This document shows, one piece after another, positions 1 through 6,107 of a DNA stretch of 6,107 nt. The stretch is taken from IMG/VR virus record IMGVR_UViG_2537561992_000040. The stretch is one strand, 5' to 3'. Position numbers and translations under genes: made by a program. Each line of letters starts with the position of its first letter. Position 1 is the first letter of the stretch. The stretch is from a virus. Its lineage: Duplodnaviria > Heunggongvirae > Uroviricota > Caudoviricetes. A model generated the notes under the pieces. It made no database searches and was not told the origin of the DNA. It saw only the letters and a program-made list of their open reading frames with translations.

Positions 1-342
1 ATGATGAAAAAAAGTATTCTGACGTTTCTGTTACTCACCAGTTCTGCAGCGGCGCTGGCTGCACCGCAGGTGATTACCGTCAGTCGTTTTGAAGTGGGTA
101 AAGACAAATGGGCGTTTAATCGCGAAGAGGTGATGCTGACTTGCAGACCGGGTAATGCTTTGTATGTCATTAACCCAAGTACCCTCGTGCAGTATCCTTT
201 AAACGATATCGCACAAAAGGAAGTTGCCAGTGGGAAGACTAAAGCCCAACCCATTTCGGTGATTCAGATTGATGATCCTAACAATCCCGGCGAAAAAATG
301 AGTCTGGCACCGTTTATAGAACGAGCTGAAAAACTCTGTTAA
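1..342 (+). CDS. yebY: Small secreted/periplasmic protein, YebY-like (DUF2511 family), 113 aa
   Basis: ATG at 1, stop at 340-342. N-terminus [23 protein letters not shown] looks like a Sec signal peptide with an ALA-A cleavage motif. Length and sequence match my recollection of E. coli YebY, the last gene of the yobA-yebZ-yebY cluster. A hairpin terminator follows directly. Name is from memory, not a search. Confidence 0.7.
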
Positions 343-371
343 TTACCTAAAATAGCCTTTTGATTTCCAAT

Positions 372-412
372 AAAAAACCGCCTCAGTTCTTTCACCAGAA
401 CGGGCGGTTTTT
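372..412. terminator. Bidirectional Rho-independent terminator (yebY on +, candidate RyeA on -)
   Basis: Stem AAAACCGCC (374-382) pairs with GGCGGTTTT (403-411), with inner GTTCT/AGAAC pairing. T-run 408-412 on the + strand and A-run 372-377 (T-run on the - strand), so it can terminate in both directions. Confidence 0.6.
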
Positions 413-483
413 AACATTTCAGCTGATGACCACCACGCTTTTTATTGACCATTTTGCACGCAAACTGGAAAACCTGGCGTCGT

Positions 484-497
484 CATCTATTCTTAAA
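484..497 (+). promoter_or_regulatory. Sigma-S-type -10 element for the SdsR-like sRNA
   Basis: TCTATTCTTAA at 486-496 matches the extended sigma-S -10 pattern (T/C at -14/-13, TATACT-like hexamer, TAA downstream). The predicted start about 7 nt downstream coincides with the GCAAGG 5' end at 500. No convincing -35, as is common for sigma-S promoters. Confidence 0.5.
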
Positions 498-499
498 GG

Positions 500-602
500 G
501 CAAGGCAACTAAGCCTGCATTAATGCCAACTTTTAGCGCACGGCTCTCTCCCAAGAGCCATTTCCCTGGACCGAATACAGGAATCGTATTCGGTCTTTTT
601 TT
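500..602 (+). ncRNA. sdsR: SdsR (RyeB)-like small RNA, about 103 nt
   Basis: Sits between yebY and the prophage junction. 5' end GCAAGGCAACUAAGCCUGCAUUAAUGCC... matches what I recall of SdsR. 3' hairpin CCGAATAC(571-578)/GTATTCGG(586-593) is followed by UCUUUUUUU (594-602). The sigma-S -10 upstream fits the known RpoS dependence of SdsR. Confidence 0.65.
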
Positions 603-668
603 AATTGTATTTAAAATCAATTAGTTGCAAACGTCTCCCCGAAATTACTCGAAATTTACTCGAATTTC
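584..668. other. Candidate prophage attL (core in sRNA 3' end, IHF site, arm-type repeats)
   Basis: Layout parallels lambda attL (bacterial DNA, core, H' IHF site, P' arm sites, int). Candidate core is the sdsR terminator 3' half (586-602). AAATCAATTAGTTG at 615-627 matches the IHF consensus WATCAANNNNTTR. Tandem direct repeats GAAATTACTC / GAAATTTACTC lie at 641-661. The int stop is at 694-696, with int reading toward the site. Confidence 0.45.
641..668. repeat. Tandem direct repeats GAAAT(T)TACTC x2 plus a partial third (GAATTTC); putative integrase arm-type sites
   Basis: 641-650 GAAATTACTC, 651-661 GAAATTTACTC, 662-668 GAATTTC. Position between the candidate core and the int 3' end matches lambda P' arm-site placement. 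Confidence 0.45.
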
Positions 669-693
669 TGTATTCCGGTCTTTTTTGGTTATA

Positions 694-1809
694 TCACAAC
701 CAAAACACATTTAACAATCCATTTACGTTAAAATCAGAGCAGTAGTACGTTTTTTCTCTCTCATCAAGATACATTTTTGTTGTCTTCTCCGATGTGTGGC
801 CAAGTAGACGTTGAGCAAATTCTTCCCCACATGTTTCTTTGTACAATCGTCCAGCCAGGCTTCTGATCTCGTGAAAAGTTGGTGGGTTTTCACTGAACTG
901 GATACCTGTTAATTTTCTGGCTGCGACAAATTTCTTTGTCAGGCCGTCCGGGTGAATGCTGCCGTCAGGGCTGTTTTTTCTAATCCCGGCACTGATTAGA
1001 TAATCCCCCCTACTTACCATGCGGCACTGTTCAACTACTGTACCAAGTCGTAAACCAGCGACAGGAAGGCTGAGTGACAGGGGGATAGCAATCATCATTC
1101 CTGTCTTAATTTGCCTGATGTGGAGACGATCATCATAAATCTCACTGAACCGCATATTTGTTATGTCTTCGCGACGTTGTCCTGTTACAAGGGCTAAGTC
1201 CATAGCTAATGGGAACCATGTCGGAAGTTGATCTGCTGCCTCCCTGATGCAGTTGTATGTCTTTAGTTTCAGCCGTTCTCTTGTAACTACTATTTTCGGT
1301 GCTCTTGTTGGCGTTACTGGATTTTGAGATATACGTCCTTCAACAATGGCCTCGCGGAACATATCAGATAACACAGAACGCATTGATCCTGCCATCGTGT
1401 TTTTCCCTCCTTCAATCCACAAATCAAGAAACTCGGCAATATGGCGAGTGGTTATTTCTGTCAGTAAAACCCCTCCTAATTTTTCTTTTATTGTCTCCAG
1501 TTGATTTACCCGAATTTTATAAGTATTTCTGGACACTTTTCTCCTTATAAGAATCGTTTTGTAACGTTCAATCCAGTCTGCCATAGTAAATGAGTCGAAC
1601 CCTTTTAGTTTTTCAATTAAGGCAGCAGGAGAGTAGTTTTTGTATATATAATGATTTGCTTCAATTGCCTGCGCTACTGCATCTCTTCTTGAAATTTTAC
1701 CTAGTGTAAATTCTTCTTTCGTCAGAGGGTTGCGCCAGTAATATGCTTTGTCCCTCCTTCGATATGTTAAGTTTTTAGGTAAATTGGGATCGTATTTTTT
1801 CCGCTGCAT
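694..1809 (-). CDS. int: Lambda-family tyrosine integrase, 371 aa
   Basis: N-terminus ...[27 protein letters not shown] parallels lambda Int ...PPNLYIRNNGYYCYRDPRTGKEFGLG. Catalytic-core motifs are present: TGQRREDI (Arg), [15 protein letters not shown] (His-x-x-Arg), [13 protein letters not shown] (His and Tyr nucleophile). Starts with ATG at 1809, overlapping the xis 3' end, and lies next to the att site. Confidence 0.9.
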
Positions 1810-2056
1810 GTTTTAACTTCTCCAGTAACGGACTGTCTCTCCCTTGTCGCCCATTAGGCTGATGGTGTGTTATATCGGTATCAACCTTATTTGGGTTGAT
1901 ATAGAAAGCTTCCGGAACCACCCTGTAACTCCTCCCGTGTAGTTCAGGTGCAGGATAAATGTTTCCATTCCTTGCCCATCGTCTCAGCGTTGATATTGAT
2001 GGTGGGTTATCCGGATATCTGAGTTTTCCCCACGTTTTGAGTGTCACAAGATTCAT
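1775..2056 (-). CDS. xis: Excisionase (lambda Xis-like), 93 aa from the second ATG
   Basis: MNLVTLKTWGKLRYPDNPPSISTLRRWARNGNIYPAPELHGRSYRV parallels lambda Xis MYLTLQEWNARQRRPRSLETVRRWVRECRIFPPPVKDGREYLF. Overlaps the int start by 35 nt, as xis-int does in lambda. SD AAGAGG has good spacing to the ATG at 2056; the ATG at 2062 is too close to the SD. Confidence 0.75.
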   Translation of the reverse strand: MNLVTLKTWGKLRYPDNPPSISTLRRWARNGNIYPAPELHGRSYRVVPEAFYINPNKVDTDITHHQPNGRQGRDSPLLEKLKHAAEKIRSQFT

Positions 2057-2162
2057 TGCCATACCTCTTACGATATGACCGCCAGTAAATATACAGAATA
2101 CTGGCGGGTGTGGTTGATTTTTAATAATCAGCTATGAAGTTCTAATTTGTATATAATGCAAC

Positions 2163-2351
2163 TCACGAGGACAGAAGTTTCTCGCAATTAAAATTTATCA
2201 GCTTTACTTTCTGCTCTCTGGACACGCCTGCTTCTTTTTTCCCTGAGAGCATTTTTTCGCATTCTGATTTCGTTAATTTAGATTTTGAATATCTTGTCCA
2301 GTTAGTAGGAGTGCCACCTTCTTTTTCAATAGTGGCAGTTATTTTATACAT
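2163..2351 (-). CDS. Small hypothetical protein, YdaC-like by position (62 aa)
   Basis: Internal ATG at 2351 is preceded by GGAGGT at about 5 nt spacing and overlaps the ralR stop (ATG at 2349-2351, TAA at 2344-2346), suggesting translational coupling. Occupies the position of ydaC between xis and ralR in Rac. The 86-aa form in the ORF track (start 2423) would overlap ralR by 80 nt and is less likely. Confidence 0.5.
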   Translation of the reverse strand: MYKITATIEKEGGTPTNWTRYSKSKLTKSECEKMLSGKKEAGVSREQKVKLINFNCEKLLSS

Positions 2352-2538
2352 GAACACCTCCATTATTATTTCCAGTAGTTCGTTTATTCCATCTTTCGAG
2401 TGCTTCTTTTTCACTTCCACCATAGCCAGTTCGGGATTCGCATCCGTTGCATTTTGCCCGGTAATATCCTGAAATTGCTTTCACTGTAACAGATGGACAA
2501 CCACAAAACGGACATGGTTTAACATCGTCATATCTCAT
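2344..2538 (-). CDS. ralR: RalR/Lar-like restriction-alleviation protein and type I toxin (64 aa)
   Basis: MRYDDVKPCPFCGCPSVTVKAISGYYRAKCNGCESRTGYGGSEKEALERWNKRTTGNNNGGVHV has a CxxC...CxxC zinc-ribbon-like pattern, and matches the length and sequence I recall for Rac RalR (Lar). Lies immediately downstream of recT as in Rac. In-frame ATGs at 2550 and 2577 are alternative starts; none has a strong SD. Confidence 0.75.
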   Translation of the reverse strand: MRYDDVKPCPFCGCPSVTVKAISGYYRAKCNGCESRTGYGGSEKEALERWNKRTTGNNNGGVHV

Positions 2539-2594
2539 AATTTTTGTCATAAAAACTGTCTCACGTTGGCGGTGCATTACACCGCCAGGCTGAA

Positions 2595-3404
2595 TTATTC
2601 TTCTGAATTATCGATTACACTGTATTCCCCGGTTAATACAGAGGAGTCTGCCGGATCGATTGTCAGTGGTTCCTTTTCATCCATTGATACTGCACGCTGG
2701 ATTTCAATTGAGACAGGCAGGTATTTAAACAGGCGACGAATAGCCGTTTTTTTTGCCATTTCTTCCCAGTGAGTTACCCATGGCCCGTTATTACCAGCCT
2801 TACTCTGGCTGCGCACCAGTTCAATCTGTTTGCGCGTCATAACTTCAAACTGAGTCCCTCCGTCTTTCAGTCTTGCGACAGCATAGACGTGGGTCACTGG
2901 TGCATCTTCGTTTTCTCCCGGGCGGTGTATTAACTTTTCATCAAGGCCAAATTCAAAACTAAACTCGTCACCTTCACGGACAACACGGGCTGACAGGCTG
3001 GCGATTTGACCAGAACGGCGAGCCAGATCAATCATGCCGCGATAACCAATGATTAGCTGAACGTTCTTTTTACCGCTCTTTTCGTTTTTATTACCAAAAG
3101 GCAGTAAATATGCGTGGCCGAGGGCGCTACCTGGCTCAAGGCCGAGCTGTGAACACTGAACGATCGCACTGACAAAACTCATGGTGTCACAGTTTCCTAG
3201 CGCCGGAACCTTACGAATTTCTGTGGTGGCGATACGTATCATTCGTTCAGCCGTCATATGGCGTGGGAGAGCTGCTGCCAGTTGCTCTTTCATTGATGGC
3301 TGATTAATAAAGCTGATCACGTCGTTATTTTTTACTGCTGCTGGTGCACGGTTTCCCTGGGTTTTTTGCAGATCGGCTTTTGCGATAGGTGGTTGCTTAG
3401 TCAT
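2595..3404 (-). CDS. recT: RecT single-strand annealing protein, 269 aa
   Basis: From [16 protein letters not shown]... the ORF matches RecT of the Rac prophage in length and sequence as I recall it. SD AAGGAG sits 7 nt before the ATG at 3404. The start overlaps the recE stop by 8 nt (ATGACTAA), the known recE-recT arrangement. The track's 288-aa start lies inside recE and is rejected. Confidence 0.9.
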
Positions 3405-5767
3405 TTGCATACTCCTTAGCCCAGCGGGGCAGTGATAACGTTTTAATAGCTGGCCATTCATCGGTATTCAGGCAGTCAGCCAGGGTCCTCAGATTGCGGT
3501 GATATTCCTGCTGGCCTGCCAGTTTTGCTTCTTCGCCCATCATGAAAATCTCAACCGGGTAACGTCCGCATTCAACAGTTGTGCTGGCAACCAGAAAAAC
3601 GAAAGTTGGCAGCACGCCAAACTGTGCTTCATAACCGTCACTGTAGAATGCATCCTGAACGTGATAGCGGTAGTCGTAATAAGCCGTTTTGAATCGTTGA
3701 ATATCCGCTGTGGTTTTCACGTCCATGATCCAGTGAAATTCAGGAATAATTTTGTCCGGACGGCACCGACACAAAATTCCTGTTTCCGGATCTTCCCAGT
3801 AAATTGATGATTCAGCGTGTCCGGCGCTTTCAACAAGCCATTGCCCCAGCGGCAAAGCCATAACGCGTTGATACATGAGTTCAATTTTCCGGCCTTCTTC
3901 CGCAGTGATAACCGTTTTTCCTGTGCTTGCGCATTCCATCAGAAACGCTTTCTCTTCTTCTTTTCCGGCGTTTGTACGGCGGTTAAATTCAGGTGCTACG
4001 ATAAAGCGGTTACTGAATTCTTCCGGTTCAAGTACCCGGCAGTGGAAAGCGGTTCCTAAATCGAGCGTTTTTGTCTTTGTAGTGTCCACGGGGGCATTTT
4101 TACGCCACAAATACAGTGCCGGAGTATCAGCAATGTCATCGAGCTGAGACTTACTGACGCCGGGACCCGCGTGGTAATTCTCATTCGAAATTCCGTAATA
4201 AATACCTGGCTCTATGTCTTCTACGATTACGGGATCTGCGACTTCGCCAGTTTCATCACTGCAATCGCGATGCGGATCGCTGCCAGCATTCTCATTGTGC
4301 GGATGTTCAGCGCCTTCCATTTCCTCCGGATCTTTTTCCTTAGCTTCAACCTGATTCTCTTCACCGAATGTTTCCTGGTATGTTGCGTCGCCCATCACCG
4401 CACCACAGTCAGGGCAGTTATCCCCGCCAGTCTGACCGCAGGCATTGCAGACTATTTCCGGTTCCTGTTGCACTACTGGCTCAGGTTGTTTCGCATCCGG
4501 GCTGATTTTTTCCGTTTCTGGCTGGTTCTGGTACACAGAATCGCGAGTCTGGATCCCCTTAACCCATTTCGGATCGTTCGGGTCGCTAATTCCGTCAACA
4601 AATTCACCACGTGATGCAGCAAGCAATTTATCGGCATCGACAGGATTTTTTGATGGAATGTTTTTCCGGGCTTCATGGAGTTCTGCCCGCAGTTCCTGAT
4701 ATTTCGCATCAACAGAATTTACCTGTGACTGAGCATCCAGCGGCTGCGTGTTCTGATGATGTTCAGTTGCATTCGGTTCCACTGTTTCAGCCGTTGCCTG
4801 TTCATCTGCCATTGCGCCAGATGGTTGTGGTTTTTCTTCATCGTCCTGTTTTCCTTCTTCTGTTACTCGTTGCGGCATCGGGGCCGAGGAGCGACCGCAG
4901 GCAATATCCACGATTTCCGGATCAGGGTTGGCATGATCGGTTTCAGTCAGTACTTTGTTCAGATATTCAGTGACGTGTGCGGGGATGACCTCGATCCCAA
5001 TTGGTGCTTCTTTCACGGACGCAACCACGATGGCGCGGGAATAATCCAGCCCGCCAGGCATGGTGATGAATTTGTCGCGGAAAACAGAAAAGGGTGGTTT
5101 ATTTTCAGCGATAATTTCCTCAATGCGTTTAGCGTGTGCCGGATGAAGGTTATAGATGTCCACGTCCATTGAACGGGCCAGTACGCCAGTGGCTACATCG
5201 CGCGCCAGTGATGTCAGATCGTGGACGAAACCTTCGCCGCGATCGGTGAGGTTCCCGCCGCCAGCATTAGCACCGGAAGCCGTGCGAGTGATGCGTGAAA
5301 CACGATTCCCTTTTCGCCATTCTTTTGTCAGAAGACCGCGATCAATGTGTTCGGTATCCAGCCAGGCTGAAATGAAATTCTTAAATTCATAGGGCTGATG
5401 TTTTTTCGTGATAGAGAACACTGCCTTAATTGCATCAGTCAGGCGGAGCAGGGCGGCATTATCCAGAGTTGTCGGTTCTGCCATGCTGCGTATGGCCAAC
5501 AGCAGATTCTGGACATAGCTGTTTTCCTGATCCATCTCAAGAGCAGTAATGTGTTTGCGTTGTTCACGGGTGGCATGATGCAGGTATTTTCGATCCCCGG
5601 CTGCATACGTAAAAATGTGCAGAAGACGCTGTGTGAACCGCAAAGTGGCTACAGAGACTTCGCAATCCTGGCAATCCTCGTGGGCGTCTGCCTGCGCGTT
5701 TTCTTCCTGGCCTCCCGTCGGTTCTTCGGTTTCCGGTGCATCCTCCTGATGGTGAACGTCGTCTGGC
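3397..5767 (-). CDS. recE: RecE (exodeoxyribonuclease VIII), 5'-truncated by an IS insertion; C-terminal nuclease region intact
   Basis: C-terminus ...[56 protein letters not shown] and the internal region DRGLLTKEW...[27 protein letters not shown] match recalled RecE. The frame stays open up to the IS terminal repeat at 5768. The track ORF reaches 5793 only by using a GTG inside the IS end. About 790 recE codons remain, against 866 in K-12 RecE (recalled), implying roughly 75 N-terminal codons displaced. Confidence 0.85.
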
Positions 5768-5795
5768 TGAGGTAGCCTGAGTTTAACGGACACTC
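5768..5795 (+). repeat. Left terminal inverted repeat (IRL) of the IS600-like element
   Basis: TG-initiated terminus with the conserved GGACAC block at the same offset as in IS3. Exact inner boundary is uncertain, and the partner IRR is outside the window. Confidence 0.5.
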
Positions 5796-5831
5796 CTTCC
5801 TGAAATAGAATGGCATCAGAAGGAGCTAATA

Positions 5832-6107
5832 ATGAGCAGAAAAACCCAACGTTACTCTAAAGAGTTCAAAGCCGAAGCTGTCAGAACGGTTCTTGAAAAT
5901 CAACTTTCGATCAGTGAAGGCGCTTCCCGATTATCTCTTCCTGAAGGCACTTTAGGACAATGGGTTACCGCCGCCAGAAAAGGGCTCGGTACTCCTGGTT
6001 CCCGCACGGTGGCTGAACTGGAATCTGAAATTCTGCAACTGCGTAAGGCGTTAAATGAAGCTCGCCTTGAGCGAGATATATTAAAAAAAGCAACAGCGTA
6101 TTTTGCA
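5832..6107 (+). CDS. IS3-family transposase OrfA (helix-turn-helix plus leucine-zipper region), partial with 3' end beyond window
   Basis: SD AGGAG at 5821-5825 sits 6 nt before the ATG at 5832. [45 protein letters not shown] has an HTH-like segment, and [30 protein letters not shown] is the heptad leucine-zipper region typical of IS3 OrfA just upstream of the frameshift site. Confidence 0.85.
6083..6089 (+). promoter_or_regulatory. Candidate -1 programmed ribosomal frameshift slippery heptamer (A AAA AAA G) for an OrfAB fusion
   Basis: Zero-frame codons are TTA AAA AAA GCA, giving the heptamer A_AAA_AAA at 6083-6089 followed by G. It sits at the end of the zipper region, where IS3-family elements carry their A6G-type frameshift signal. 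The downstream stimulatory structure is outside the window. Confidence 0.45.

Follow-up and report, generated by a model that had tools for sequence, protein, structure and literature searches.

SdsR (RyeB) is a conserved sigma-S-dependent small RNA whose published targets include tolC, mutS, yhcB and ompD, and RyeA (SraC) is its antisense antagonist, described as an antitoxin. What becomes of two such overlapping RNAs when a phage integrates into the DNA that encodes them? This question is raised by a 6,107-nucleotide stretch of DNA (hereafter the window, positions counted from its first letter) from the Caudoviricetes record IMGVR_UViG_2537561992_000040, for which a preliminary description had proposed a prophage at the SdsR/RyeA locus rather than at a tRNA. 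Our analysis gives us considerable confidence that the window holds the attL junction of a ~48-kb lambdoid prophage, and that integration has rebuilt sdsR and cut RyeA, probably placing the latter under a new promoter. The early region of this prophage is Rac-like, and its copies in O26-type strains include nleG7.

The host side of the window begins with yebY (DUF2511; 1–342, + strand; Pfam PF10709, 4.8e-45), a conserved chromosomal gene 5′ of sdsR that is annotated in all matching genomes. SdsR itself was identified by Rfam (RF00111), with a match at 503–602 on the + strand that covers model positions 1–100 of 100 and scores 118.1 bits against a gathering threshold of 38 (E = 2.2e-23). The published K-12 SdsR start, GCAAGG... 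(Choi 2019), sets +1 at position 500 and the 3′ end at 599–601, so that the complete sRNA occupies 500–601. Upstream lies a promoter that we assign to the sigma-S type from its motifs (487–493, + strand): C-13 at 487, whose role in the sdsR promoter is known from Frohlich 2012, and the −10 element TATTCT at 488–493, the hexamer that Choi 2019 mutated to CTCGAG (primer PM_SdsRR); both are the same in K-12. The SdsR terminator consists of an 11-bp stem (568–596) followed by a run of seven T. With the −10 hexamer and the stem at these positions, the earlier placement of an SdsR-like sRNA downstream of yebY, with a sigma-S −10 at 486–496 and a terminator at 571–602, was essentially right. Between yebY and sdsR, an A run, CCGCC...GGCGG and a T run (372–412) make up a putative bidirectional hairpin terminator, read from the sequence and not flagged by a simple terminator scan, which would terminate yebY in one direction (+) and RyeA in the other (−); the 3′ ends of K-12 RyeA (+261 to +270; Choi 2019) fall at this hairpin. 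Across the window, ARAGORN detected neither a tRNA nor a tmRNA, in agreement with the proposed insertion at the sRNA locus.

Comparison with chromosomes lacking the prophage places the junction at a single base. In an ungapped comparison, K-12 and the window are identical through position 603 and diverge from 604, and when positions 340–700 were aligned to empty-site genomes, the match likewise ended at query base 264, corresponding to window position 603; host identity thus stops short of int. Of 5426 complete E. coli genomes, 5191 have an unoccupied sdsR site, while 228 contain the junction of the window. Since the window covers attL only, the far prophage end was taken from related genomes. 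In the lysogen H19, a second copy of the 27-bp core ACAGGAATCGTRTTCGGTCTYTTTTTA lies 48.0 kb away, adjoining pphA, and the flank of this attR equals K-12 sequence through the RyeA promoter. The free-phage record PP818812.1 contains a contiguous attP, in which P arm, core and P′ arm follow one another (2850–3170 of L004) and carry phage-type SNPs.

The same arrangement recurs beyond these genomes. Integrases 95% identical to that of the window adjoin sdsR in two other genomes, and Shigella flexneri has the same P′ arm beside sdsR. We gathered P′ arms by an IMG/VR pattern scan, an integrase search of species-representative genomes having given only 2 loci, and the core boundary proved constant across 67 unique arms belonging to two diverged families (A and B). 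We also considered whether the junction might not be site-specific at all, the int region being native or having been joined to sdsR by an insertion sequence or by illegitimate recombination, as the IS600 at 5768–6107 and the further copies near pphA in H19 might suggest. Such an origin has practically no chance of being correct: in 5191 genomes the unoccupied site stops precisely at the core, the unique arms share one boundary, and the duplicated core at attR, the empty sites and the contiguous attP of the free phage already refute it.

Comparison of attL, attB, attR and attP defines the att core, whose attL copy ACAGGAATCGTATTCGGTCTTTTTTTA occupies 577–603. Positions 577–599 are the final 23 bp of sdsR, and with the SdsR 3′ end at 599–601 the overlap between core and sRNA amounts to 23–25 bp. 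Within the core, A588 and T597 are of the phage type in this four-way comparison; as read from these two SNPs, the crossover is within 577–587, in the loop region of the terminator, and the 3′ end of SdsR is thus supplied by the phage. The preliminary description had called the SdsR promoter and body intact; both are indeed native, but the 3′ end to the right of 577–587 is not. The last 15–25 nt of SdsR in the lysogen are phage-derived, with a U-A pair in the stem instead of U.G and a U tract lengthened from 5 to 7. The idea that the phage SNPs make a stronger terminator was rejected, as ViennaRNA gave −15.8 kcal/mol for K-12 and lysogen alike, and with equal energies the U tract is the sole difference between the two terminators.

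These data show how the site was used. A lambda-type Int/Xis system inserted the phage at the final 23 bp of sdsR, and since attP has a version of the terminator's 3′ half of its own, a complete SdsR is regenerated. Strand exchange within 577–587 most likely took place in the 7-nt loop AGGAATC (579–585), which, by analogy with lambda and the tRNA-site paradigm, is likely the 7-bp overlap, while the arms of the stem would be the two core-type Int sites. A candidate 7-bp overlap between inverted core sites is itself a likeness to lambda and HK022. The crossover in a 7-nt loop with a symmetric stem on both sides, and an attP that carries the 3′ part of an RNA gene and regenerates it, are shared with integration at tRNA and tmRNA 3′ ends, as far as that paradigm (Williams 2002) is outlined in PMC3603311; here, in contrast, the target is the terminator of an Hfq-binding sRNA.

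The recombination genes next to the junction are of the expected lambda type. The tyrosine integrase (694–1809, − strand; Pfam PF00589, PF22022 and PF09003) has catalytic, central and arm-binding (PF09003) domains and is 98% identical to the Int of PP818812.1, 69% identical to that of a Salmonella relative and 41% identical to HK022 Int. Its reading frame in the window carries a 1-nt deletion at 743, with the effect that a 16-codon tail stands in place of the final 3 codons, a frameshift located after the catalytic Tyr region; intact relatives have 358 aa and stop at 734–736. A second apparent 1-nt deletion in the window lies at 371. The TGA at 696–694 was therefore discarded as the normal int stop, comparison with H19 and pPE4 having revealed the deletion. 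This TGA overlaps a −10-like element. An excisionase gene (1775–2062, − strand; Pfam PF07825, 6.5e-14; annotated as such in H19) follows, and then a Rac-like early region (2163–5767, − strand; Pfam and H19 annotation) with a DUF1187 gene, ralR, recT and a 5′-truncated recE, together with the RalA sRNA on the opposite strand (2167–2345, +; Rfam RF02694, 219 bits). The left end of an IS600 interrupts recE (5768–6107, + strand) and matches the annotated IS600 of H19 at 100%. The early gene set int, xis, DUF1187 gene, ralR/RalA, recT, recE and kilR is a likeness to K-12 Rac. Rac lies in ttcA (ydaO) and has a different integrase, while the present element sits in sdsR.

Between the core and the normal end of int lies the non-coding P′ arm of the phage att site (604–733), which is missing from K-12 and is joined to the P arm in PP818812.1. 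Sequence and conservation allowed us to predict Int arm, core and IHF sites here. An IHF-like site AATCAATTAGTTG (consensus WATCAANNNNTTR) at 615–627 (+ strand), precedes a tandem array of three arm-type repeats C[CT]CGAA[AT]TT (638–667, + strand, starting at 638, 648 and 659) on the side away from the core; a motif search found six matches in the whole window, three of them in this cluster. The IHF-like site and the repeats are conserved in both arm families, and the repeats look like lambda P′1–P′3. The Int with its arm-binding N-domain, the Xis, the position of int next to attL and the order of an IHF-like site before three tandem repeats ~55–85 bp from the crossover are shared with lambda and HK022, whereas Int is only ~41% identical and an extra conserved block (668–698) extends past the third arm repeat. 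The core also differs from that of lambda, whose attB is located between gal and bio, in being an sRNA terminator hairpin. The + strand half of the 668–698 block, GTATTCCGGTCTTTTTT, nearly duplicates the core. On the − strand, the block contains TGaTATAAC (696–688), an extended −10-like element that is the same in families A and B. We also asked whether the K-12 sdsR–pphA spacer, where the native RyeA promoter is located, is an old P′ arm, and dismissed this because its alignment scores were matched by 19/500 and 42/500 shuffles, leaving no detectable homology between spacer and P′ arm.

While SdsR is regenerated, RyeA is not. Both strands of the locus give rise to an RNA, so regenerating one RNA truncates the other. 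In K-12, RyeA has 272 nt and starts at SdsR +141 (Choi 2019), 39 nt past the SdsR end, which means that integration cuts it and moves its promoter and first 37 nt to attR. In coordinates of locus L001, the K-12 RyeA +1 is at 2802 and its −10 element TATGGT at 2815–2810 (from the primers of Choi 2019), both beyond the end of the core at 2765. The preliminary description was accordingly correct in placing the 5′ end and promoter of RyeA in what is now phage-derived DNA: the native −10 TATGGT and 5′ end (AAAGUCAGCG...; L001 2815–2766) are absent next to the core, where P′ arm DNA stands instead, and in H19 they are found at attR. The sigma-70 promoter of RyeA and its first 37 nt thus lie ~48 kb away, beside pphA. 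Integration likewise puts pphA out of reach of transcripts running on from sdsR. What remains beside sdsR in the window (372–603, − strand) begins at about nt 38 of K-12 RyeA and continues to its 3′ end; Rfam recognises the RyeA/SraC core (RF00101) at 606–462 with 179.1 bits against a threshold of 37.

Antisense transcription over sdsR in the lysogen would then depend on phage DNA. Our reading of the P′ arm is that RyeA has probably acquired another promoter instead of disappearing, and that TGaTATAAC is most likely the candidate replacement promoter, giving an RNA ~40 nt longer. A chimeric, longer RyeA with altered level and timing would result, its transcription resting chiefly on this element. 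We would expect RyeA to fall and SdsR to rise or to appear earlier, a shift of the kind reported in Salmonella lysogens of PhiW104. According to Frohlich 2012, SraC of Shigella and Salmonella is ~35 nt longer than that of K-12 and has its −10 box ~35 bp further upstream; TGaTATAAC lies 39–40 nt upstream, an approximate match to that position. As a −10 element, TATAAC is missing the conserved T at its last position, its −35 element is weak (TTGTTA, 18-nt spacer), and the 668–698 block could serve recombination instead of transcription. Another promoter-like match on the − strand, TTTGCA (631–626) separated by 16 nt from TACAAT (609–604), was set aside as the main candidate since one such match was found against a chance expectation of 1.1, and since it overlaps the IHF-like site.

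The P′ arm might instead lack a working promoter, leaving RyeA silent and SdsR fully uncoupled, as the preliminary description suggested. The displacement of the native promoter and 5′ end fits this idea, as do the missing final T of TATAAC and the single 9/12 promoter match in 340–800, no more than chance would give; PhiW104 lysogeny, too, lowers ryeA in the account given by PMC7380047. That account describes ryeA transcription as decreased rather than absent, the TGnTATAAC block is kept across diverged arm families, and published SraC, though longer, is still detected in Shigella and Salmonella, S. flexneri having the arm of the window. We therefore regard complete silencing as unlikely; RyeA has lost its own promoter, but the uncoupling is probably partial, the Shigella SraC still being expressed and ~35 nt longer.

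Read-through from int would be a second possible source of antisense RNA. In the lambda prophage, the tI/sib region lies beyond att and is parted from int. In the window, int points toward sdsR, and no terminator-like site was predicted on the − strand from int to position 412, so that the antisense RNA might come mainly through attL, from a pI-like promoter (or an induced pL) to the 372–412 terminator. If so, antisense control of SdsR would be coupled to prophage state. That this is the main source appears rather improbable, as the prophage is cryptic, IS600 splitting its recE and the H19 copy containing pseudogenes, and read-through predicts long, heterogeneous RNAs rather than the discrete species ~35 nt longer that has been reported.

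The preliminary description had mentioned that sdsR/ryeA is a known insertion site, and such literature exists. PhiW104 (Balbontin et al. 2008, J Bacteriol 190:4075), as summarised in PMC7380047 and PMC3333887, integrates at ryeA/ryeB; the former summary states that it uses the last 23 bp of ryeB, that the 5′ part of ryeA is changed, and that ryeA is lowered and ryeB raised. Going by these summaries, the target, the last 23 bp of ryeB/sdsR and internal to ryeA, corresponds to window positions 577–599, and the 5′ part of ryeA is in both cases replaced by phage DNA. Salmonella-type P′ arms of family B (e.g. OK490361.1) have the core, IHF-like site, arm repeats and conserved block in common with the window. 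The present element differs from PhiW104 in its host, E. coli of the O26/STEC type, and in its family A arm; set against the published description of PhiW104, it also differs in its Rac-like early region (ralR/RalA, recET) and in nleG7 at the far end. A literature search combining ryeB, STEC and prophage found no published mention of the ryeB site in STEC prophages. The mechanism, as those summaries present it, is already published for Salmonella PhiW104, and since the principle dates from 2008, our analysis is of value less as a discovery than for confirming it and resolving it to the base in E. coli.

The far end of the prophage points to a further consequence. At attR, the RyeA promoter precedes nleG7 by 858 nt and shares its strand, the stretch from one to the other containing no predicted terminator; in locus L003 the two stand at about 19473 and at 20331. 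The orphaned promoter faces this gene in 116 genomes. If this reading is true, a host RyeA promoter has become an exponential-phase promoter into the prophage moron nleG7. The combined proposal, that the P′ arm promoter swaps in for that of RyeA and resets the toxin-antitoxin-like SdsR/RyeA balance while the orphaned RyeA promoter drives nleG7, is speculative and improbable as a whole. Were both parts true, one integration would rewire RyeA, a type III effector and pphA together.

The prophage is present in about 4% of complete E. coli genomes, for the most part O26-type STEC, which thus have a changed RyeA 5′ end and promoter and a pphA disconnected from sdsR. Results obtained in K-12 on the regulation of SdsR, RyeA and pphA are therefore not safely transferable to lysogenic strains, and the case illustrates that the terminator hairpin of an sRNA can be used by a phage in the same way as the stem-loop of a tRNA.

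The window opens with yebY (1–342, plus strand; Pfam DUF2511) and a hairpin terminator acting on both strands (372–412), followed by the sdsR/ryeA locus and, from 604 onwards, by prophage DNA. The preliminary description had placed the prophage at this sRNA locus and not at a tRNA gene, and ARAGORN indeed returned zero tRNA or tmRNA on the window. When window 340–700 was queried against 5426 complete E. coli genomes, all matched; in K-12-type genomes the match comprises query bases 1–264 only, so that K-12 identity ends at window 603 without continuing into int, and the entire query was matched in 228 genomes. In the reverse test, the K-12 stretch from sdsR through the start of pphA (2662–2900 of L001, the K-12 sdsR-ryeA-pphA locus) was uninterrupted in 5191 of the same 5426 genomes; about 96% of strains thus have an empty site, and nearly all occupied sites carry the present junction. 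In a few genomes (e.g. NZ_AP027783.1 and NZ_CP116976.1), the locus is broken elsewhere, inside sdsR or the ryeA promoter region, with its two parts in separate places; these events are distinct from the present prophage.

Base-by-base comparison shows that attL (window 577–603) reads ACAGGAATCGT-A-TTCGGTCT-T-TTTTTA with phage DNA beyond it, and that the empty K-12 site, attB, differs within the core by a G for the variable A and a C for the variable T, continuing into the ryeA promoter and pphA. In H19 (O26-type, NZ_AP027165.1), the window region leads into a lambdoid prophage whose other boundary lies between nleG7 and pphA; the second core copy sought at the far prophage end was found there (19536–19510 of L003, the attR side), 48.0 kb from the first, with K-12-type G and C and a flank that does not differ from K-12 up to and including the ryeA promoter. 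The GenBank record PP818812.1 encodes an Int 98% identical to that of the window and holds P arm, core and P' arm in one contiguous stretch with phage-type A and T; this stretch is attP. This record (region 2850–4239 of L004) is labelled Actinobacillus phage vB_Apl-pPE4 (Actinobacillus pleuropneumoniae), a host label that looks doubtful given an attP core that is an enterobacterial sdsR terminator and an Int 98% identical to an E. coli prophage Int.

Base 576, adjacent to the core on the left, and the SNP at 588 are each found with the arm to which they belong, which confines strand exchange to 577–587. The 7-nt terminator loop AGGAATC (579–585) falls inside this interval, with the stem arms inverted on its two sides. 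Judging from lambda and from integrases that target tRNA genes, the overlap region is probably this loop, and its stem arms would be the core-type Int sites. Window 577–599 coincides exactly with the final 23 bp of sdsR, and Salmonella phage PhiW104 uses this very site, given as the last 23 bp of ryeB (Balbontin 2008, as summarised in PMC7380047). The event is a lambda-type integration on the pattern of tRNA-gene targeting, with an sRNA terminator as its target.

Integration regenerates the sdsR gene. Rfam places full-length SdsR_RyeB at 503–602 (plus strand; 118.1 bits, E = 2.2e-23), and transfer of the K-12 ends of Choi et al. 2019 (PMC6610125) puts +1 at G500 and the 3' end at 599–601. The −10 hexamer TATTCT (488–493) is the one mutated in that study, a C-13, characteristic of sigma-S promoters (Frohlich 2012), lies at 487, and the terminator forms an 11-bp stem (568–596) followed by seven T, so the SdsR coordinates first proposed are correct. 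Promoter, seed and body match K-12 exactly, and the phage contributes the last 15–25 nt of SdsR. Compared with K-12, a U.G pair in the stem is replaced by U-A and the U tract has 7 residues instead of 5, with no difference in predicted hairpin energy (−15.8 kcal/mol for both).

The integrase (int, 694–1809, minus strand) has catalytic, central and lambda-type arm-binding domains, lies next to the excisionase gene (xis, 1775–2062, minus strand), and is closest among characterised integrases to those of HK022 and mEp phages, at about 41% identity. In two further genomes, one E. coli and one Shigella flexneri, int genes with 95% identical products directly adjoin sdsR. Scanning IMG/VR with the P' arm pattern gave 92 stretches and 67 unique arms, which split into two diverged families, A (E. 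coli type, including the window) and B (Salmonella type, e.g. OK490361.1); sdsR similarity begins at the same base in every arm. Both families keep the core, an IHF-like site (AATCAATTAGTTG, 615–627), three tandem repeats C[CT]CGAA[AT]TT (638, 648 and 659), in an arrangement like that of lambda P'1–P'3 and accounting for three of the six motif matches in the whole window, and a conserved non-coding block (668–698). Within this block, 668–687 (GTATTCCGGTCTTTTTT) nearly duplicates window 586–602, the 3' half of the sdsR terminator and core, but has an additional C; both families keep this copy too. It may be the remnant of an older core, a further Int site or a weak plus-strand terminator (fold energy −5.5 kcal/mol).

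The antisense partner fares differently, as the preliminary description had correctly anticipated in proposing that the RyeA 5' end and promoter would have to lie in what has become phage DNA. Rfam recovers the conserved part of SraC_RyeA at 606–462 (minus strand; 179.1 bits). K-12 RyeA is 272 nt long (Choi 2019, PMC6610125); mapping the primers HINDIIIryeAPF, 3RACE_RyeAF and PM_RyeAF of that study onto L001 puts its start at SdsR +141 (L001 2802, 5'-AAAGUCAGCG...) and its −10, TATGGT, at L001 2815–2810. As the core ends at L001 2765, the promoter and nt 1–37 lie beyond the junction, and in the lysogen they are found at attR, about 48 kb from sdsR.

RyeA is probably not entirely lost. SraC is still expressed in Shigella and Salmonella; relative to the E. 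coli RNA it is longer by about 35 nt and peaks earlier in growth, and its potential −10 box is displaced upstream by about 35 bp (Frohlich et al. 2012); in a sampled S. flexneri genome, the same family-A P' arm adjoins sdsR. [quoted passage not shown] Because this element survives in both arm families, with TG and TATAA retained in the variants seen, it is the best candidate for a replacement RyeA promoter. Its −10, TATAAC, does not have the usual final T, and the block may have its role in recombination and not in transcription. Int transcripts reading through are a second possible source of antisense RNA, consistent with the absence of any predicted minus-strand terminator between int and 412. 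PhiW104 lysogeny is reported, in the summary of PMC7380047, to reduce ryeA and increase ryeB.

Beyond xis, the prophage part of the window carries a DUF1187 gene and ralR (2163–2577), recT and recE, all on the minus strand. A full-length RalA antitoxin sRNA (2167–2345, plus strand; Rfam RF02694, 219 bits) overlies the DUF1187 gene and the Lar/RalR-type toxin gene ralR, so that a prophage at a non-Rac site carries the Rac-type type I toxin-antitoxin pair. IS600 (5768–6107) cuts recE at 5768; in H19 and other best-matching genomes it lies 612 bp off, at window-equivalent 5155; these appear to be separate insertions in one gene, and none of the genomes listed has the window arrangement in one piece. 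An ALIL pseudoknot (Rfam RF01497, an IS3-family frameshift element) at 837–953 in L005 and L006, loci of related prophage copies, about 1.5 kb from int, points to IS3-family insertions there also. Relative to H19, a single base is missing from A runs of the window at each of two positions, 371 and 743; the loss at 743 shifts the frame of the last three int codons, turning a 358-aa protein ending in ...EKTYLLL* into a 371-aa product, and may represent either a genuine inactivating mutation or an artefact of assembly.

In K-12, read-through transcription joins pphA to sdsR, and ryeA transcription modulates pphA (Choi 2019, PMC6610125); in the lysogen pphA is physically separated from sdsR. The pphA next to the H19 prophage is also shortened by another IS600 copy (L003 17452–19376), and is thus both uncoupled and damaged in that strain. 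The intact RyeA promoter at attR points into the right end of the prophage, and its transcripts might extend to nleG7; in H19 the two are on one strand, 858 nt apart with nleG7 downstream, and no intrinsic terminator is predicted between them. In 116 complete genomes, an unbroken stretch holds the promoter, attR, P arm and nleG7.

Together, these results confirm the prophage at the SdsR/RyeA locus and support, with refinements, the interpretation first given to it. The prophage structure is well supported, and the integration mechanism is already published. Bobay et al. 2013 listed ryeB among known phage targets in Salmonella, and a 2023 study named a Citrobacter prophage after its RyeB site. 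Our literature search, with the O26 genome paper outside its coverage, found no description of the site in E. coli or STEC. The present analysis contributes, for E. coli, the exact core and the interval of the crossover; it also locates attP in a free-phage record, gives site occupancy over complete genomes and defines two arm families with the elements they share. Two ideas go with it: that the P' arm may supply a replacement promoter for RyeA, and that the orphan RyeA promoter, facing nleG7, may read into that gene.
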